Source: a virus. From it: a stretch of 64,000 nt of DNA. The notes under the pieces are model-generated. The model saw nothing but the letters and a program-made list of their open reading frames with translations. It had not been told where the DNA came from and did no database searches. Position numbers and translations under genes: made by a program. This document shows positions 1,113-23,179 of the stretch, piece by piece. The first letter of the stretch is position 1. Each line of letters opens with the position of its first letter. The DNA is taken from IMG/VR virus record IMGVR_UViG_3300029310_000003, one strand, 5' to 3'.

Positions 1113-1208
1113 GGTGACGGTCTCCTTTTTCGTTTCATTTGATGGGGGCGGGGCCGCTTTGGTGCCCGGTGCGGCTCTGCTAGGGTGTCCGGGGTGGGGG
1201 CTGTGCCC

Positions 1209-4209: not shown

Positions 4210-4854
4210 ATGAAAAATTTCGAGACCATCGCCAAAACCATTGAAAACCAGCTGAATTCCGGAAATTCCCGTATGACCATCTGTACGCAGAACGAATTCG
4301 GCGGCGTGTATTTTCTGCACGTCACCATGACGGGCGCAAAGATCGAGCCGTATGCGCAGTACAAGGAAAGTCTCCTGCTTCTGTTCAAGAAGCGCGGAGG
4401 CCGCACGGTGTACGGGATGCGCATCTACGGCGAGAAGCCCATCGCGATTTTCAGCGGCTGGCCGGAAACGACCTACGAGCAGCCGAAAAGCTTCTGGTGC
4501 TTTGATAAAAATCTGTTTTACGGCCTTGTGGACGGATTCCCGCAGGAGCTGAAGCTTGCGGAGGAATCGGAGCGCGTCCACCTCGCAGAAATTCAGGCGA
4601 AGGGCAAGGTCTACCGCGTCATCACGATGAACGAAGCCCGGCGCATGACCATCGCAGAATTCCAAACCGCCGACGAATTGAAAGCCGCCTTTGAATCCAC
4701 GGGAGAATTCCACAGCGTATCCTGCCGGGCCGAGCTGCAAGGCGCACCGAAGCTAAAGAATTTCTGCGGGCCGATGTACGACGGAACGGACGAAGCCGGA
4801 AATTCGGTCATCCGCTACGAATCGCGCGAGGTGTACGAAATTCTGAGCGCATAA
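4210..4854 (+). CDS. hypothetical protein (214 aa)
   Basis: AGGAGG RBS; ORF track entry. Confidence 0.65.
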   Translation: MKNFETIAKTIENQLNSGNSRMTICTQNEFGGVYFLHVTMTGAKIEPYAQYKESLLLLFKKRGGRTVYGMRIYGEKPIAIFSGWPETTYEQPKSFWCFDKNLFYGLVDGFPQELKLAEESERVHLAEIQAKGKVYRVITMNEARRMTIAEFQTADELKAAFESTGEFHSVSCRAELQGAPKLKNFCGPMYDGTDEAGNSVIRYESREVYEILSA

Positions 4855-7363: not shown

Positions 7364-7387
7364 AAGCCGCCCAACCGGGCGGCTTTC
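7364..7387 (+). terminator. hairpin aagccgccc-aacc-gggcggctt (copy 1 of a perfect 24-nt direct repeat)
   Basis: Lies directly after the stop of the SHOCT gene. The identical 24-mer recurs at 7728-7751. Confidence 0.5.
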
Positions 7388-7389
7388 CG

Positions 7390-7418
7390 TTGACAAGGCG
7401 AAATTTCGACGATAAAAT
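7390..7418 (+). promoter_or_regulatory. sigma-A-type promoter of toxin mRNA 1
   Basis: TTGACA 7390-7395, 17-nt spacer, TAAAAT 7413-7418. Confidence 0.55.
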
Positions 7419-7495
7419 AAAAAAGCCCCATTGGGGCGGGGCGCTGCCAAGGAGGCGGCAGGCGGTCGGCACTTCCTGAAAAGGAGGTGTTGCTT

Positions 7496-7582
7496 ATGGT
7501 GACATATTCCGATCTGATTCAGATTGGTATTTTGATCGTAGGCATTTGCTCTCTGGTTTTCCAGATAAGCAAAAAGAAATGA
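7496..7582 (+). CDS. 28-aa holin-like toxin peptide (type I toxin-like), copy 1
   Basis: MVTYSDLIQIGILIVGICSLVFQISKKK: one TM span plus a KKK tail, typical of the 'putative holin-like toxin' peptides of Firmicutes. The AGGAGG RBS sits inside an 8-bp hairpin (cacttcct-GAAA-aggaggtg, 7470-7489). Confidence 0.7.
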   Translation: MVTYSDLIQIGILIVGICSLVFQISKKK

Positions 7583-7665
7583 CCGTCCCAAGTTAGCCGC
7601 TCGGACGGTCATTCTTTGTAAAATGATCTTTAACTACGGCTGACTGCCTGCGGCAGCGCCCTTGT
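7570..7665 (-). ncRNA. candidate antisense (antitoxin) sRNA of TA-like module 1
   Basis: Minus-strand TTGACT (7693-7698) followed by TAATATAAT (about 7668-7676). The transcript would run convergently into the shared terminator. Its 5' segment gggcgctgccgcaggcagtcagcc is conserved in copy 2. Confidence 0.4.
7578..7613. terminator. bidirectional terminator hairpin shared by toxin mRNA 1 and its antisense RNA
   Basis: 11-bp stem aatgaccgtcc/ggacggtcatt. A T-run follows on the minus strand; the plus-strand T-run is weaker. Confidence 0.6.
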
Positions 7666-7727
7666 TTATTATATTAACAGCTTGCACAAAAAAGTCAAGC
7701 GAAAAGAGGAAAACAATAAACACTGAG

Positions 7728-7751
7728 AAGCCGCCCAACCGGGCGGCTTTC
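7728..7751 (+). repeat. copy 2 of the perfect 24-nt direct repeat aagccgcccaaccgggcggctttc
   Basis: Identical to 7364-7387. The two copies bracket TA-like module 1 with a 364-bp period. Confidence 0.8.
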
Positions 7752-8217
7752 GCCATCTATCAAGCCTCGCAGGATGCGAAAACCAGCGCAGCTTGAGATC
7801 GAGTCGAATGCGCGGATGCATCTGGCGTGCCGTAGGAAGCCATAGAAGCAGAGAACAAGGTGTTATGAGTATCCTATCATTATTTCATCAAGTTCGCGGC
7901 TTGTAGAGCCTCTGAGGGCGCGAGGCTTGCTGGGAAAACGCCACGAAAAAGGCAGCAAGTCGGAAAAACAAGAACAGTCTCGAAAATCTCACCCTGAACT
8001 CCACCGTAAAGGTGAGCAGACACGGCGAAGAAATCCTGCTGCAAAAAGCGACCATCGCAGGCCGAAAGCGTCCCGTTTGGGTATCGTGGTCTGACCGCAT
8101 CTACTACACCACCGCGCAGGTGAAAAACCGAGGATATAAGCTTCACACAGTCGCTTGAAATCCCGAAAAATCCTGCTATACTGAAATAAAACGGAAAAAG
8201 GAGGAAGCAAAACGCGA

Positions 8218-14941: not shown

Positions 14942-15015
14942 GTGCGTGTAGTTTAATGGCAGAACATCAGACTTCCAATCTGATGGTGGGAGTTCGATTC
15001 TCCTCACGCACTCCA
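14942..15015 (+). tRNA. tRNA-Gly (anticodon UCC), CCA encoded
   Basis: Manual cloverleaf: acceptor gtgcgtg/cacgcac, D-stem gttt/gaac, anticodon stem tcaga/tctga with loop cTTCCaa, T-arm gggag-ttcgatt-ctcct, then tCCA. Confidence 0.85.
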
Positions 15016-16025: not shown

Positions 16026-16101
16026 GGGCCGTTATCTCAAAGGCTAGAGCAACTCGCTCATAACGGGTAAAATCTCGGTTCGACTCCGGGACGGCCCACC
16101 A
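16026..16101 (+). tRNA. tRNA with CAU anticodon (elongator Met or Ile2), CCA encoded
   Basis: Acceptor gggccgt/acggccc, anticodon stem actcg/cgggt with loop ctCATaa, T-arm ctcgg-ttcgact-ccggg, then aCCA. Lacks the three G-C pairs of an initiator anticodon stem. Confidence 0.8.
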
Positions 16102-18721: not shown

Positions 18722-19004
18722 CGATCAGGAAATGAAGCAATTCGCCGACCGCTTGTGGGAATATTTTCTTCCGAAGGTCGAAGTGCTGACGCGCGCGAAC
18801 GTCTGGTATTTCCGCGCGCAGGTGACAAAGGCCGCAGAAAACGGGCGTATCACCGTCCAACGCCCCTTCGATAAAGAAATCGCCCTTCCCTATGTGACCA
18901 GCATGGCAGCCGCATCCATAGGCTCACAGGTCACGGTTTTCGTCCTCGGCAGCAGCCTCACGAACGCCGTCATCATCGGCGACGGCACGCTTTCCAATTT
19001 ATAA
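18714..19004 (+). CDS. hypothetical protein (96 aa), possibly OB-fold/spike-like
   Basis: ATG overlaps the upstream stop; GGGAGG RBS. 'GRITVQRPFDKEIALPYV...GSQVTVFVLGSSLTNAVIIGDG' is reminiscent of gpV-type small spike domains. This is a weak call. Confidence 0.5.
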   Translation: MNNDQEMKQFADRLWEYFLPKVEVLTRANVWYFRAQVTKAAENGRITVQRPFDKEIALPYVTSMAAASIGSQVTVFVLGSSLTNAVIIGDGTLSNL

Positions 19005-19034
19005 GAAAAAACCGGGAGGCGTAAAACCTCCCGG
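19004..19034 (-). terminator. rho-independent terminator of the convergent minus-strand unit
   Basis: ccgggagg/cctcccgg stem, with a T7 run on the minus strand. Confidence 0.6.
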
Positions 19035-19042
19035 AATCCCAT

Positions 19043-19216
19043 TCAGCTCTGGCTTTCGCACCATGCGTTCCAGATGTTCTCCACAGTCTCGCTTTCATCG
19101 TCCTTCAGGCGCTCCATGCAAAAAAGCATGAAGTCTGCAAATCGTTTTTGATTCTTCACCTGACGGGAAATTTCGAGCAACTCTTCCTGTTCAAACAAAA
19201 TCGTGCTGCAACTCAT
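19043..19216 (-). CDS. hypothetical small protein (57 aa), paralog of 11502..11666
   Basis: Internal ATG (MSCSTILF...) about 11 nt after GGAGG. Conserved KNQ/FC/TVENIWN.W pattern. Confidence 0.5.
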   Translation of the reverse strand: MSCSTILFEQEELLEISRQVKNQKRFADFMLFCMERLKDDESETVENIWNAWCESQS

Positions 19217-19233
19217 GTTTTTCATACCTCCAT

Positions 19234-19995
19234 TCACATCTGCGCATCCGAAATCAAACTGGCGGCTTTCCGGCGGATAATTGCTTCGAACGCCGGTCGA
19301 AGCTTCCGGTCTCGGGAAATGACCTGCAAAATCGAAACCTGTTTGCATTCCGTTTCCGTTGCGCCGTTTTTCCGCATTCGGTTGCGCAGACGTGTCTGGC
19401 GGCATTTTAAGTCAACGCCGGTTTCCGATTCCAACTCAGCGTAGCGGTCGCTGCGGAACTTTCTGTGATTTCCGCCGTACTGCTCCACAAGCGTGTTGAT
19501 CTGGTGATTCATCGCCGAAGTCCAATCGTCCGGGCTGACCGCCGGGGCGGAGAAAATGTCCAGCGTTTTCTGCATGGTCTGTTCCGTGCGTTCTGCGCGG
19601 TTTTCCAGAGCCTTGAGACGGCGTTCCTGCTCCACCATGAGCTGTGCTTGTGCAAGAAGCTGTTCCGCCGGAGACAACTGCGGATTTTTGATTTGCGCTT
19701 CCATACGGTTGAATGCGTCGATGTACTTGAGTTTCCATTCGAGCGCAGACTTTCCAGTGAAGCCCATGACCAGCAGTGAGAAACCATCACGATTCATGAG
19801 GTACGCGCGCTGCGGTCTGCCGTAGCTGTCCGGAATTTCGACCGAGAAAAACATCTGCTCAAAATTGAGCACATCTTTTCTGAGGTCATCAATGTCACGA
19901 AGAACATTCCGATGCTCTTTTTCGAAGTGTTCGGCGATATCCCGGCTGCTTGCGACGGGTTGACCGTTCTGGTTAATGGTGATTAAATCTTTCAT
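19234..19995 (-). CDS. phage regulatory protein Rha-like N-terminus + ORF6C C-terminus (antirepressor)
   Basis: 'VASSRDIAEHFEKEHRNVLRDIDDL...YLMNRDGFSLLVMGFTGKSALEWKLKYIDAFN' fits the Rha pattern. 'LLAQAQLMVEQERRLKALE' is nearly identical to the ORF6C of 10658..11467. Confidence 0.75.
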   Translation of the reverse strand: MKDLITINQNGQPVASSRDIAEHFEKEHRNVLRDIDDLRKDVLNFEQMFFSVEIPDSYGRPQRAYLMNRDGFSLLVMGFTGKSALEWKLKYIDAFNRMEAQIKNPQLSPAEQLLAQAQLMVEQERRLKALENRAERTEQTMQKTLDIFSAPAVSPDDWTSAMNHQINTLVEQYGGNHRKFRSDRYAELESETGVDLKCRQTRLRNRMRKNGATETECKQVSILQVISRDRKLRPAFEAIIRRKAASLISDAQM

Positions 19996-20114
19996 ATCAA
20001 AATCCTTTCTTGACGCGTCCGAAAGAACCTGATAGAATAAATTTATCAAAGTTTCTTTTGGACTTTGGTGGTTAGAGCCGTCCGTGATCTTTGCAGGAGC
20101 AACGGGCGGTTCTT

Positions 20115-20291
20115 TTATTTTTTGACCGTGGCTTTCACCATCTGAATTCCCAAACGAATCACATCGCTCTTTGTCTTACTGAGTTTTTCACAGCAATACT
20201 CCAAATCCGACATTGTATCTCGATCTGCCAAAAATTTCACCTGTGTATCTTTCGGGTTTTCAGATTTCGGTCTGCCTGTACGGGGCGACAT
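20115..20291 (-). CDS. ribbon-helix-helix transcriptional regulator (58 aa)
   Basis: ATG 6 nt after AGGTGA. 'GRPKSENPKDTQVKFLADRDTMSDLEYCCEKLSKTKSDVIRLGIQMV' fits the RHH pattern. Confidence 0.6.
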   Translation of the reverse strand: MSPRTGRPKSENPKDTQVKFLADRDTMSDLEYCCEKLSKTKSDVIRLGIQMVKATVKK

Positions 20292-20321
20292 TTGTATCAC
20301 CTACTTTCTATGTACATGTTT

Positions 20322-20350
20322 ATTATATTTATATGTACCTAAAAAGTCAA
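20322..20350 (-). promoter_or_regulatory. consensus sigma-A promoter (TTGACT-17-TATAAT) flanked by TGTAC(A/C) half-sites
   Basis: Minus-strand TTGACT 20345-20350 and TATAAT 20322-20327. TGTACA at 20311-20316 and TGTACC at 20333-20338 flank the -10. Confidence 0.6.
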
Positions 20351-20469
20351 CCCCATTTCAGAAAAAATTTTCAAATCAGCGGGACAAATCAAAAACCGGC
20401 GCTTTCGCACCGGCTTTCCATTCCCATTTCTATTGACATTTTCAAATAACCTGTTAATATAATAGACAA

Positions 20470-20557
20470 GGGCGCTGCCGCAGGCAGTCAGCCGAAGTGA
20501 ATCATCTCAAAAAAAGAAATGACCGTACCGGGCTGGGTAAGCGGTCATTTCTTTTTG
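20470..20557 (+). ncRNA. candidate antisense (antitoxin) sRNA of TA-like module 2
   Basis: TTGACA 20433-20438 and TATAAT 20458-20463 on the plus strand. Conserved 5' gggcgctgccgcaggcagtcagcc. Ends at hairpin 20518-20550 plus a T-run. Confidence 0.4.
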
Positions 20558-20631
20558 CAAATCTGAACGATCAGACCAGCAAAGCCGATGAGTACGAGCG
20601 AAAAGGTAAAAACCTCATTCCATGTAACCAT
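20545..20631 (-). CDS. 28-aa holin-like toxin peptide (type I toxin-like), copy 2
   Basis: MVTWNEVFTFSLVLIGFAGLIVQICKKK. Has the same SD-sequestering hairpin and a 5' UTR about 90% identical to copy 1, although the coding sequence is diverged. Confidence 0.7.
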   Translation of the reverse strand: MVTWNEVFTFSLVLIGFAGLIVQICKKK

Positions 20632-20708
20632 CCGCATCACCTCCTTTTCAGGAAGTGCCGACCGCCTGCCACCTCCGTGGCAGCGCCCCGCCCCATTGGG
20701 GCTTTTTC

Positions 20709-20737
20709 ATTCTAGCATCCATGTCAAAACGTGTCAA
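20709..20737 (-). promoter_or_regulatory. sigma-A-type promoter of toxin mRNA 2
   Basis: Minus-strand TTGACA 20732-20737, 17-nt spacer, TAGAAT 20709-20714. Confidence 0.55.
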
Positions 20738-20740
20738 TAT

Positions 20741-20771
20741 AAGAAAAAACCGGAGGACTTCCGTCCTCCGG
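20741..20771 (-). terminator. terminator of the lysis/late operon
   Basis: ccggaggac/gtcctccgg stem, with T-runs on both strands. Confidence 0.7.
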
Positions 20772-20783
20772 CTCTTTTTATCC

Positions 20784-22286
20784 CTACGTCCTTTTCACAT
20801 ACTGCTTGGAAACGTAGCCTTCCTTACCGCCTGCCGTCCGTACATAATACCAGTTCTCTGTCTGATATCCGTACCATGTGACGACCTCGCCGAATTTCAG
20901 CACCGTTTTGACCGCCGTCGAGATCCCGGCTCCCGCCCGGAGATTCAGCGCGCTTGCCGTTACCTTCAGCCGCACACCCTTCGCGGCGGACTTGTCCGTC
21001 TCCGCCCAGCTTTCGGTTTTCGCAGGCTTCGAGGGCTTGACCGGCCCTACGGACCTGCTGAGATAGTTCCCGCTTCCGCCCTTGAGCCAAATTCCGACGA
21101 ACCCGCGAAGCTTGTTCGCTCTGGCCCATGCCTTGGAGGGGATGGCGTATCCGCTGGAGCTTCCGCCGTCGAGATTGATGGCGAAATCGTAGCCCTCGGA
21201 AACGAACTTGTTCGCCACGACCTCCAGATTCACGGGATTCTGCGTCACGAGGATTCCGAGTACATCGCCCTTGAGGCCCATCGCCGTGCGGTAGCGGTTT
21301 CCCTCAAGCCCCTTGGGAACCGTGAAGGACTTTTCACCGCCGAGAACGAGCGCGGGGTAGCCCCCGACCGCATCGGGCGAGGAAACGGCGCTGTAGCCCT
21401 CCTGAATGGGCGTCCGGTAATTCGAGAAGCCGATAAACGGCTGCCACCCGCGATATTCCATCTCTCCATGATGCACCACGCCGGAAGCCGGCGTGTAATT
21501 GGAATAATTGAAAAGCTCCGCGTTTATGACGATATCCGGCGCACGCCCGTTCCATTTTGCGCGAACGGCCGCGCTTGTGAGATATTCGCCTCTTGCGCCA
21601 TCCATGCGGATGTGTTCCATCCGTTCGATGCAGGAAAACGGGACTTCGGCAAAAATTCCTCCCTGGAAGGAGCCGTACCGAACGCTTTTCAGCTCCGTCC
21701 GCTCCGGGATACCGGAAATTTTGGAGACTACGTCCCACTTGGGCCGTCCGATCCCGCCGATGGCCGCAGAATTCCGATAGTACCACTTCTTGAAAACGCC
21801 GCCTCCGTTCGGGATCACCGTGTTTTCTCCGGAGCCGGTGTTTCCTTCGATGGTGTAAATTTTCGCGCTGTCCACCTTATAGACAATTCCCGTGTGCGTC
21901 ATGTTTCCGGGAGAACCGAAGAAGATCTGATCTCCCTCCTGAACCTTGGAGACCGGAACGCTCTGGCCTGCATCCCGGAAATAATTGTAGGACATCGTGC
22001 ATCCGGCTCCGTAGAGGCCCTTCGGCTGGCACGTCATCTCCATTCCGGCGGAAAACCCGAACGCCGTGATAAAGCACCAGTCCACGAACATATCGCACCA
22101 TGCGTAGCCCTGCTTGGAGGCATTGTAGGTCCCCCATTTTGCATGATCCCGCGCATATTTCGTGTAATTGTTCCGTCCGGCGTTGGCCGTTTTGTCGTCG
22201 AGCTGGGCGTTCGTAGCCTTTTCGAGATAACCGACCTCGTTTTCGGCCACGGAAAGCAGCTTTCTGATTGCCTCGGAGACCGTCAT
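20784..22286 (-). CDS. endolysin: CHAP + phosphodiester-glycosidase (NAGPA/DUF2233-like) + SH3b
   Basis: CHAP Cys/His context ('GYAWCDMFVDW', 'HTGIVY'); middle 'INAELFN...AINLDGGSSSGY'; C-terminal 'LNLRAGAGISTAV...WYYVRTAGGKEGYVSKQYV' SH3-like. Confidence 0.85.
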   Translation of the reverse strand: MTVSEAIRKLLSVAENEVGYLEKATNAQLDDKTANAGRNNYTKYARDHAKWGTYNASKQGYAWCDMFVDWCFITAFGFSAGMEMTCQPKGLYGAGCTMSYNYFRDAGQSVPVSKVQEGDQIFFGSPGNMTHTGIVYKVDSAKIYTIEGNTGSGENTVIPNGGGVFKKWYYRNSAAIGGIGRPKWDVVSKISGIPERTELKSVRYGSFQGGIFAEVPFSCIERMEHIRMDGARGEYLTSAAVRAKWNGRAPDIVINAELFNYSNYTPASGVVHHGEMEYRGWQPFIGFSNYRTPIQEGYSAVSSPDAVGGYPALVLGGEKSFTVPKGLEGNRYRTAMGLKGDVLGILVTQNPVNLEVVANKFVSEGYDFAINLDGGSSSGYAIPSKAWARANKLRGFVGIWLKGGSGNYLSRSVGPVKPSKPAKTESWAETDKSAAKGVRLKVTASALNLRAGAGISTAVKTVLKFGEVVTWYGYQTENWYYVRTAGGKEGYVSKQYVKRT

Positions 22287-22591
22287 CCTTCCCCACCTCC
22301 GTAAAGCTCGTGGTGGAGCGTCAGCACCGCAGACTCGATCATTTTGTCCACGGTCGCATCGTCAAACCGAATGCCCTTCGAGGCCAGATATTGCAGAACA
22401 TACGCCTTTTTCTCCTGACCCTGATCGGATCTATAGAGCTGCTCTGCCGCCCGAACGGCGATCTCCACCACCGACTGCCACTTTTTCAGCTTTTCCGAAC
22501 CGATCTTCTCCTTCAGCCACGGAACGAGAAACGCCGAGACCAGCGCCGAAATCAGCGCAAGGAACGTTGTAATGATCTTTGTGTAATCCAT
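22283..22591 (-). CDS. holin, LL-H family-like
   Basis: N-terminal TM 'IITTFLALISALVSAFLVPWL' followed by a helical 'AVRAAEQLY...GQEKKAYVLQYL' tail. Directly upstream of the endolysin with a 4-nt overlap. Confidence 0.7.
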   Translation of the reverse strand: MDYTKIITTFLALISALVSAFLVPWLKEKIGSEKLKKWQSVVEIAVRAAEQLYRSDQGQEKKAYVLQYLASKGIRFDDATVDKMIESAVLTLHHELYGGGEG

Positions 22592-22604
22592 GATATTTCT
22601 CCCT

Positions 22605-22877
22605 TCAATCCTTCAAAACCGTTTCGAGAATTCTGCTCGTGCTTTCAATTCCGTACCGGTCCGCCAGCTTTTCCACGAATTTCAGCGCGTACTTGCTCCG
22701 GTTTTCATTTTTGGCCTTCCAGAAATAAAAGCCGGTCGCAGCACCGCACTCCGCGATCCACGCGCAGAGCACCGCCGCAGCGGAGCTTTTGTCCGACTCC
22801 GCCAGAAAAACGAAGATCAGCACCGCCAGCACGAAATACGAAAAAACGAGAATTTTCTTGCTCCATTCCATTCTCAT
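22605..22877 (-). CDS. two-TM membrane protein of the lysis cassette (90 aa)
   Basis: ATG overlaps the upstream stop (ATGA). TMs 'ILVFSYFVLAVLIFVFL' and 'AAVLCAWIAECGAATGFYFW'. Confidence 0.55.
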   Translation of the reverse strand: MRMEWSKKILVFSYFVLAVLIFVFLAESDKSSAAAVLCAWIAECGAATGFYFWKAKNENRSKYALKFVEKLADRYGIESTSRILETVLKD

Positions 22878-23179
22878 GACACCACTTCCCATTCGTCCAC
22901 TTCCCTCTTGATCTTGTCGATGAAGGAATTTCCGTGGAGCGCCTTGTATGCGTCGTACTCGTACTGGAAATTTTCCGACTCATACTGCCGAATTTTCTGT
23001 TTTTCCTTGTTTTTGTAGTAGGTGTGCAGCATATCGGCGCGAAGCTGACATTTCATCCCATCCTTGATGGCTTTTGAGCCAAGCACACGCTCCCGCAGCG
23101 GCCGGACGAGCGCGACCAGCAAAACGCCGATGGTCGTAATTCCTCCGCAGACCGATACCACGTCCTTGAAAACTTCCAT
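22874..23179 (-). CDS. single-TM membrane protein (101 aa)
   Basis: Internal ATG (MEVFKDVV...) 7 nt after GGAG. TM 'VCGGITTIGVLLVALV'. Confidence 0.5.
   Translation of the reverse strand: MEVFKDVVSVCGGITTIGVLLVALVRPLRERVLGSKAIKDGMKCQLRADMLHTYYKNKEKQKIRQYESENFQYEYDAYKALHGNSFIDKIKREVDEWEVVS

Follow-up and report, generated by a model that had tools for sequence, protein, structure and literature searches.

The stretch analysed here is a viral DNA sequence of 64,000 nucleotides (nt), IMG/VR record IMGVR_UViG_3300029310_000003, and is called the window at its full length. It carries a small cassette twice, on the plus strand at 7390-7755 (copy 1) and inverted on the minus strand at 20386-20737 (copy 2). 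Both copies consist of a sigma-70 promoter, a structured 5' untranslated region (UTR), a ribosome binding site (RBS) enclosed in an 8-bp GAAA hairpin, a 28-codon hydrophobic open reading frame (ORF) ending in KKK, a hairpin called T1 and a convergent antisense promoter. An original prediction had described 20433-20737 as a type I toxin-antitoxin (TA)-like module and the inverted second copy of 7390-7755. This was borne out with every listed feature found where it had been placed, and the module is longer than that range, with a second terminator at 20391-20414. We consider it highly probable that the locus is an autonomous type I TA cassette of the BsrG/BsrE-SR4/SR5 kind, present in two copies in an Oscillospiraceae (Faecalibacterium-like) phage.

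In copy 2, the toxin promoter TTGACA-17-TAGAAT (20737-20709, minus strand; 11/12 matches plus TG) retains both hexamers in homologs with a variable spacer. Transcription would start near 20702-20704, where the toxin mRNA begins with the hairpin GCCCC-AAU-GGGGC (20690..20702, minus strand); homologs carry other hairpins instead (GCCAUCGAAAGAUGGC, GCCCCUCCGAUGAGGAGGGGC, GGUCUCGCAAGAGAC). The next segment (20657..20689, minus strand) is the 5' strand of a long-range helix equivalent to helix P1 of bsrG mRNA. It is composed of block A (20679-20689), a 9-nt bulge and block A'B (20657-20669), and was recovered by duplex prediction, the minimum free energy (MFE) fold, covariation and the alignment to Rfam family RF01412. 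The leader of about 70 nt ends with the RBS-sequestering hairpin CACUUCCU-GAAA-AGGAGGUG (20638..20657, minus strand), which buries the Shine-Dalgarno (SD) sequence and shows compensatory changes in homologs (e.g. CACUUCCC/GGGAGGUG). The toxin ORF (20631->20545, minus strand; 28 amino acids (aa), MVTWNEVFTFSLVLIGFAGLIVQICKKK) has AGGAGG 8 nt upstream of its ATG.

Hairpin T1 (20511..20556) belongs to both strands, as the intrinsic terminator of the antisense small RNA (sRNA) and as an internal stem-loop of the toxin mRNA equivalent to SL3 of bsrG, and its 5' arm and A-run consist of the KKK-stop codons (AAAAAGAAATGA). Beyond T1 lies the 3' strand of the long-range helix (20469..20493, minus strand), whose complement the antisense RNA carries at its 5' end. 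The sRNA promoter TTGACA-16-TAATAT with an extended -10 TG (20433-20460, plus strand) follows, and the complements of its -10 and -35 boxes are kept in an alignment of 21 modules. The predicted antitoxin sRNA of about 90 nt (20467..20556, plus strand), delimited by this promoter and T1, contains a 5' segment in the sense of the toxin 5' UTR, a linker and T1. The likely terminator of the toxin mRNA is T2 (CCGGUGC-GAAA-GCGCCGG followed by UUUUUGAUUUG; 20414-20391, minus strand), which was read from the sequence, is contained in the MFE fold and has equivalents in homologs; a simple terminator scan did not list T2 of copy 2.

The corresponding parts of copy 1 are the promoter (7390-7418), the SD hairpin (7470-7489), the toxin ORF MVTYSDLIQIGILIVGICSLVFQISKKK (7496-7582), the helix 3' strand (7638-7661) and T2 (7727-7755) on the plus strand, and the sRNA promoter (7698-7671) on the minus strand. 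Both the toxin promoter and the antisense promoter, as well as the near-identical UTR and hairpin, were confirmed in the two copies. On the sRNA strand, the complement of the toxin-mRNA 5' hairpin is joined to a T-run and looks like a terminator in both copies (20685-20702, plus strand; 7425-7442, minus strand). Such a site could halt antisense read-through exactly at the toxin transcription start.

Related modules and similarity to BsrG

An Rfam scan of 20350-20800 with relaxed thresholds gave its lowest E-value for BsrG (RF01412; 16.8 bits, E = 0.077 in a 451-nt search). The alignment is full-length on 20443-20687 (minus strand) at a score below the 55-bit gathering score, and the two strands of the outermost RF01412 helix are occupied, with high posterior probability, by GGCGCUGCCAC and GCGGCAGCGCC (blocks A and A*). 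Among the related loci, which are numbered with the prefix L, the Dehalobacter module L113 from the T1 scan described below scores 79.1 bits (E = 2e-16), above the gathering score. Since the scores step down from L113 to L108 (29.5 bits) and L077 (21.8 bits), the likeness to BsrG is graded through the family.

The peptides give a similar picture. The copy 1 peptide matches Pfam family Hol_Tox (PF16935) at 19.3 bits (E = 0.001), under its 23.3-bit gathering score, and NCBIfam ComI weakly (E = 2e-4); the copy 2 peptide has no match to Hol_Tox. Within the family, 6/24 peptides match Hol_Tox at E <= 0.01 (best E = 1.6e-13), and one Faecalibacterium relative bears the UniRef name 'Holin-like toxin'. 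The family is tied to BsrG by the weak RF01412 match of the window, the above-threshold match of L113 and the related peptides that match Hol_Tox. The cassette is a distant relative of bsrG/SR4 and bsrE/SR5 of Bacillus prophages that was previously without annotation, and its design is already known. A literature search on type I TA systems in Faecalibacterium found nothing relevant, and megablast of window positions 19000-23000 against 50,697 phage records (INPHARED) gave no match.

In order to collect relatives, UTR-based patterns were scanned on viral contigs, giving near-identical relatives only or spurious sites (L007, L008). A T1-based pattern (AAAAAGAAATGACCG-N8-30-CGGTCAT, covering the ORF end and the hairpin) was scanned in viral and genome collections and found 17 viral loci and at least 120 genome loci. 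Matches were kept if they had an SD and a short hydrophobic ORF; about 60% of the listed genome matches were chance matches in unrelated phyla, and viral L019 was spurious. About 45 real modules remain among the matches listed, from Faecalibacterium prausnitzii (including ATCC 27768), F. hattorii, F. tardum, other Oscillospiraceae, Acutalibacteraceae, Butyricicoccus, Lachnospiraceae, metagenome-assembled genomes of Clostridia and Candidatus Dehalobacter, and also from their phages. The expectation that the RNA elements are conserved and functional was upheld by this family-level architecture.

The family peptides fall into several unrelated-looking classes, every one ending in KKK. This tail is conserved at the DNA level, because AAA-AAG-AAA-TGA is the T1 5' arm and A-run, and T1 read on the opposite strand has the form of a canonical terminator, with UUUCUUUUU as its tail. 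Within classes most codon differences are silent: copy 1 and L017 differ by 7 synonymous and 1 non-synonymous changes, copy 2 and L012 by 3 synonymous and 1 non-synonymous. These counts argue that the toxin ORF is under purifying selection within peptide classes.

Several members deserve separate mention. Faecalibacterium loci such as L023, L026, L056, L059 and L070 encode a class of 33-aa peptides (MTFEQVVLLLTLLGGAIYITFEITWTISNGKKK, MTLSEVLQLLAVIGGAVFVTFQITWTISNSKKK) in cassettes of this same design, with an even longer 5'-3' helix; the class occurs on at least 1000 contigs and is mostly labelled 'hypothetical protein'. L011:170-700 and L015 (viral contigs 3300045988_117763 and _090719) are a head-to-head chimera, in which a class-1 ORF (MVTYSDLIQIGILLVGICSLVLQTSKKK) has lost its own promoter and UTR and is fused directly to a class-2-like module's SD hairpin in inverted orientation. 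In L010 (IMGVR_UViG_3300012344_000039, near 1148-1187, minus strand), an in-frame TGA breaks the class-1 ORF while the UTR, the helix blocks and the sRNA promoter look intact, so that it is probably a toxin pseudogene with retained RNA elements. About 100 nt upstream of the toxin module on the uncultured Ruminococcaceae contig of L108 lies a skipping-rope RNA (RF02924, 62.3 bits; 4297-4384, minus strand).

The long-range helix and the probable transcript ends

The original prediction had suggested a hok-like fold-back between the 5' UTR and the region past T1. The fold-back itself is real at the family level and longer than first seen; it is not a new hok-like idea, as the helix corresponds to P1 of bsrG mRNA. 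In copy 2 it comprises 24 pairs in two helices, with 20679-20689 and 20657-20669 facing 20469-20493 (RNAduplex about -51 to -55 kcal/mol). The layout is the same in every class, and all of the about 45 modules have the predicted two-part helix. The 5' UTR contains block A (9-14 nt), a bulge and block A'B (13-18 nt), and past T1, in the toxin sense, a single stretch of 25-30 nt pairs with both blocks and is followed by the complements of the sRNA -10 and -35 boxes. Block A exists in several class variants (GGGCGCUGCC, AAGGCUACC, AGGUGCUACC, GGUGAACC, GAGAGUUCUGC, AGGCACUGUC), and its partner changes in step. In 19 modules of the window type, the duplex predicted between the 5' UTR and the 3' UTR of each module lies between -36 and -51 kcal/mol, and in the chromosomal class of Faecalibacterium it lies between -44 and -74 kcal/mol. 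The MFE folds of the read-through transcripts of both copies include the helix (copy 2: 20704 to 20386, 319 nt, -149.0 kcal/mol).

For the covariation analysis, 20 diverse modules were aligned as mini-constructs made of the 5' segment, an N10 linker and the 3' segment, as whole 5' UTRs aligned badly with MAFFT in their left part, and the 24 pairs were taken from copy 2. Standard pairs occupy 88.3% of cells, compared with 34-48% when the 3' partners are slid by 1-3 columns. Double-sided changes are found at 15/24 pairs (9.6 +/- 1.5 in shuffles) and in 52 cells (19.8 +/- 3.7 in shuffles; 0 of 500 shuffles attain 52). Covariation of the helix is strong. G-U pairs with G in the 5' UTR and U in the 3' UTR stand at many positions (for example in 14/20, 9/20 and 7/20 modules at three pairs), indicating that the arms are kept pairable as RNA and not identical as DNA. 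RNAduplex gave noisy energies for long segments (83 x 67 nt), with means of -45.4 kcal/mol for cognate, -35.0 for non-cognate and -30.3 for shuffled pairs, and defined 3' blocks and column-wise counts were used instead. We regard the covariation signal as real because both kinds of control (slid and shuffled), the Faecalibacterium class as an independent set and the MFE folds all argue for it.

Formation of the helix requires that transcription passes T1 and stops at T2. In the antisense direction of T1 a U-tract is universal in the family, whereas in the toxin direction no more than five T are found in the 9 bases after the stem in 18/35 distinct modules (for example CGGTCAT-TTCATATGA and CGGTCAT-TTCCGTAAA). 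T1 can therefore be read as mainly the terminator of the sRNA, dependable in the sRNA direction only. A second hairpin with a U-tract (T2) is regularly present past the sRNA promoter, and in L014, L017 and L039 the sRNA -35 box lies inside it or immediately before it. Given the weak T1 in the toxin direction and the regular T2, the toxin mRNA is best read as a transcript of about 320 nt that ends at T2 and contains T1 internally, which in copy 2 would extend from about 20704 to about 20386 (minus strand). The prediction that copy 2 has a different, bidirectional terminator therefore holds for the sRNA direction; the stem (GAAATGACCG/CGGTCATTTC) is common to T1 of both copies with the loop alone differing, and the toxin direction is the weak one in the 18 modules above.

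Probable exchange or homogenisation of cassettes, the sister phage and genomic context

The 24-mer GGGCGCTGCCGCAGGCAGTCAGCC and the 20-mer hairpin CACTTCCTGAAAAGGAGGTG occur two times each in the 64-kb window, one per copy, where shuffles expect 0. By pairwise alignment of each segment, the two copies are 92% identical in the 5' UTR and 83% beyond the hairpin, and only 49% in the coding sequence (CDS). As predicted, the CDS differs at most codons (20/28, of which 18 are non-synonymous). Much closer ORFs are found elsewhere. Copy 1 is 84-88% identical in the ORF to L002, L013 and L017 (UTR 70-85%, 3' block 52-71%), and copy 2 is 94% identical in the ORF to L012 (UTR 86%, 3' block 64%). In total, the RNA parts of phages with nearly the same toxin ORF are 62-86% (UTR) and 45-71% (3' block) identical to the window copies, compared with 92% and 83% for the other copy, which means that for either copy the nearest RNA parts are those of the other copy in the same genome. 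The reverse pattern exists for L013 and L017, which both lie on IMGVR_UViG_3300013382_000012, encode nearly the same peptide on different scaffolds and are 86% identical in the CDS, 68% in the UTR and 49% in the 3' block.

This incongruence between segments implies either modular exchange of ORF and scaffold or intragenomic gene conversion (homogenisation). Selection on RNA structure rather than recent duplication had been proposed to explain the near-identical UTR and antisense segments, and this explanation did not hold up. The paired blocks vary freely if both sides change, and from structural selection by itself one would therefore not expect RNA parts that are 92% and 83% identical around an ORF that is 49% identical. 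The near-identical RNA parts thus point to cassette shuffling or intragenomic homogenisation, not to structural selection alone. Loci of the bsrG/SR4 type that encode BsrE/H instead of BsrG have been reported in Bacillus (PMC6562991). Copy 1 is bracketed by direct repeats of one terminator hairpin (AAGCCGCCCAACCGGGCGGCTTTC; 7364-7390 and 7729-7755), and similar hairpins stand on both sides of the module in L002, L004 and L005. The repeats flanking copy 1 are possible recombination substrates for gain and loss of the cassette.

A toxin-less relative of copy 2 exists in a sister phage. In L018:8760-9140, whose contig (IMGVR_UViG_3300045988_095454) also carries L001, 163 bp corresponding to window positions 20576-20738 are cleanly deleted. 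L018 has lost the toxin promoter, the 5' UTR and codons 1-19 of copy 2, and has retained T1, the sRNA gene (with one substitution, GGGCGUUGCC) and T2. L018 looks like an orphan antitoxin, which supports a toxin/antidote relationship.

In the window, copy 2 lies between lysis and regulatory genes with terminators on both flanks. On the lysis side stand a holin (22283-22591) and an endolysin (20784-22286); on the regulatory side there is a small gene resembling a repressor (20115-20300), together with an anti-repressor (19234-20049). A terminator 3' of the endolysin gene (T0; 20744..20777, minus strand; 15-pair stem and TTTTTT) would insulate the cassette from the lysis operon. Copy 1 is situated among accessory genes with no assigned function, with a second anti-repressor nearby. 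Two transfer RNA (tRNA) genes lie between the cassettes (14942-15012 and 16026-16098, plus strand; 71.5 and 50.8 bits with Rfam tRNA).

Proposed mechanism, alternatives and significance

Among the closest known systems is bsrG/SR4 of the SPbeta prophage of B. subtilis. The structure-probed bsrG mRNA (296 nt) pairs nt 1-35 with nt 232-262 in the long bulged helix P1, has its SD in a 4-bp helix and its stop codon in the 5' part of SL3; the first contact is that of the loop in SR4's terminator with loop 3, after which nt 1-33 turn single-stranded and the SD helix extends to 8 bp, so that SR4 both blocks translation and promotes decay (Jahn & Brantl 2013, PMC3834814). The parts of the window cassette and their order are as in bsrG/SR4. 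Both systems are prophage- or phage-borne with a small hydrophobic toxin. In both (by prediction in the window) an mRNA of about 300 nt pairs its 5' end with a 3' segment in a bulged helix and has a paired SD, the antitoxin is complementary to the 3' strand of that helix, and an internal stem-loop holds the toxin stop codon in its 5' arm and terminates the convergent antisense RNA. BsrG also ends in KKK, and the RF01412 consensus contains AAAAAAAUAG, consistent with this end. There are differences as well. The toxin has 28 aa in the window and 38 aa in BsrG; the predicted sRNA has about 90 nt and starts directly at the helix complement, compared with 183 nt for SR4; and the mRNA terminator lies about 55 nt past the helix, beyond the sRNA promoter, compared with 1 nt in bsrG. 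Unlike bsrG, the window mRNA has an extra 5'-terminal hairpin ahead of the helix and an SD hairpin of already 8 bp without the sRNA, and the host belongs to Oscillospiraceae and not to Bacillus.

The toxins of bsrE/SR5 (P6 prophage), bsrH/as-bsrH (skin element) and ComI of plasmid pBS32, with 29-30 aa, are nearer to the 28 aa of the window. BsrG and BsrE are characterised type I toxins; the bsrE/SR5 RNAs are 'strikingly similar' in structure to bsrG/SR4, SR5 acts by decay alone with the SD region unaltered, and the reported hosts of bsrE/bsrH-like systems are Bacillus, Lactobacillus, Halobacillus and Enterococcus and do not include Clostridia (PMC6562991). The decay-only action of SR5 agrees with the prediction for the window, and the bsrG/SR4-type loci with BsrE/H-type ORFs represent the same kind of ORF swapping as found here. 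The likeness to bsrE/bsrH is one of design, and a sequence-level match of peptides or RNAs is not part of the comparison. With Hol_Tox (PF16935), the window peptides agree in size, the single hydrophobic helix and the cationic C-terminus.

In the following proposed mechanism, where each transcript ends, that the peptide is toxic, what RNase III does and in which order the RNAs bind are all inferred. The toxin would be a membrane peptide of 28 aa with a single helix, of the 'holin-like toxin' type, and the convergent sRNA of about 90 nt would begin inside the toxin 3' UTR and end at T1. The predicted sRNA is fully complementary to the helix 3' strand and T1, and its 5' end is therefore in the sense of the toxin 5' UTR (first ~28 nt). 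By analogy with SR4/SR5, the sRNA would first touch the T1 loop and then zip along the 3' UTR, displacing the 5' UTR. The sRNA:3' block duplex is predicted at -79.5 kcal/mol and the internal helix, with its G-U pairs and bulge, at -55.2 kcal/mol, so the sRNA should displace the 5' UTR. The resulting long perfect duplex would be a substrate of RNase III, and the toxin mRNA would be destroyed. Pairing in trans of the sRNA 5' end with the toxin 5' UTR, as in SprA1AS or par, was considered and rejected, since the two are of the same sense with only trivial matches of 5-6 nt. In the window, the SD hairpin is predicted to be closed (7-8 bp) with the helix, without the helix and in the T1-ended transcript. 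Because it is closed in every state, decay is the likelier main effect in the window copies, and bsrE/SR5-like decay with constitutive translational damping is favoured by these folds. In L014, L080 and L117 the 5' strand of the helix reaches into the anti-SD, and there sRNA binding should tighten SD sequestration, as in bsrG.

Four points weigh against the assignment to the BsrG/BsrE-SR4/SR5 kind or parts of it. The window lies far below the curated thresholds (16.8 vs 55 bits for RF01412; 19.3 vs 23.3 bits for Hol_Tox in copy 1 and no match in copy 2). The covariation alignment favours pairing by its construction, since duplex prediction picked the segments and an artificial linker (N10) connects them; the slid and shuffled controls offset this only in part. 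T1 of copy 2 is, as an exception, followed by seven U in the toxin direction, and much of the toxin mRNA may stop there without the helix 3' strand, which is the main weakness of the model for this copy. The SD hairpin is predicted to be unchanged by the helix, so the folds lend no support to the translational half of the bsrG mechanism in the window copies.

Control of the Hok/AapA1 type, where the 5'-3' helix keeps the full-length mRNA inert and inaccessible to the sRNA until slow 3' trimming activates it, and the sRNA acts mainly on the processed form, would agree with a long-range helix that is real and conserved, was itself the first proposal for this locus, and coexists with a closed SD in the full-length fold. 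We consider it unlikely. The sRNA is complementary to exactly the segment that would be trimmed off, leaving the T1 hairpin alone as a target in a T1-ended mRNA; the SD hairpin is equally closed in that transcript, so that trimming would bring no obvious gain in translation; and the homologous bsrG antitoxin binds the full-length mRNA and opens P1 (PMC3834814). Long-distance 5'-3' pairing and a sequestered SD are also features of the toxin mRNAs of two other systems, hok/sok (plasmid R1) and aapA1/IsoA1 (H. pylori). Their antitoxins are directed at the 5' region and their mRNAs become active by 3' trimming, whereas the predicted antitoxin of the window overlaps the mRNA's 3' end and is directed at the fold-back's own 3' strand. 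Neither in sequence nor in peptide is there a relationship. An antitoxin that pairs with the 5' leader, as in hok/sok-type systems, was not found: the sRNA 5' end is of the same sense as the leader, and the sRNA is complementary to the 3' UTR and T1.

It is still less probable that the peptide is a lysis accessory of the phage (holin- or antiholin-like), with its dose tuned by a cis-antisense RNA, and not an addiction or defence toxin. Copy 2 stands directly downstream of the holin and endolysin genes, and the family name is 'holin-like toxin' (PF16935, UniRef). The cassette is separated from the lysis operon by its own promoter and strong terminators, however, and copy 1 lies amid unrelated accessory genes; many relatives reside in Faecalibacterium chromosomes (at loci possibly within prophages), the sister phage without the copy-2 toxin retains its lysis genes, and BsrG and BsrE are type I toxins (PMC6562991). 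Very improbable, finally, is a role of the inverted similarity between 5' UTR and sRNA as DNA (operator or recombination sites), or its being a relic of an inverted duplication with no role in RNA pairing. The blocks are DNA inverted repeats and the cassettes are mobile and mosaic, but the arms are not identical: the G-U pairs described above, and the pairing of GGUGAACC with GGUUUGCC in L108, are mismatches in a DNA repeat. Moreover, the bulge of 5-25 nt is on one side only, and the homologous helix has been probed in bsrG mRNA (PMC3834814).

Under the preferred assignment to the BsrG/BsrE-SR4/SR5 kind, the two cassettes could act on each other. The sRNA of each copy is predicted to pair with the 3' block of the other at -72.1 and -70.8 kcal/mol; cognate pairs reach about -79 kcal/mol, and the internal helix lies at -52 to -55 kcal/mol. 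Since each sRNA is predicted to pair nearly as well with the non-cognate 3' block, cross-neutralisation is plausible. We only tentatively suggest that the cassettes form a cross-protecting pair, with unrelated toxin ORFs and interchangeable scaffolds, in which either sRNA would open and destroy either toxin mRNA. If this is true, scaffold identity and not the peptide would set 'immunity groups' among related gut phages, and orphan sRNA genes, as in the toxin-less sister phage, would be anti-addiction or cross-immunity elements against incoming relatives.

No new principle is revealed by these cassettes, and their interest for mechanism is moderate to low; that of the annotation, the natural covariation and the scaffold-swapping data is somewhat higher. 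Present Rfam and Pfam thresholds overlook loci of this family, and 28-aa ORFs are under the limits of gene callers. The natural variation of the modules is a ready covariation data set for helix P1. The BsrG/BsrE-SR4/SR5 design is extended by this family to Faecalibacterium, other abundant gut Clostridia and their phages, and the conserved core of the family is, more than the peptide, the logic by which the 'antitoxin mimics the 5' UTR'.

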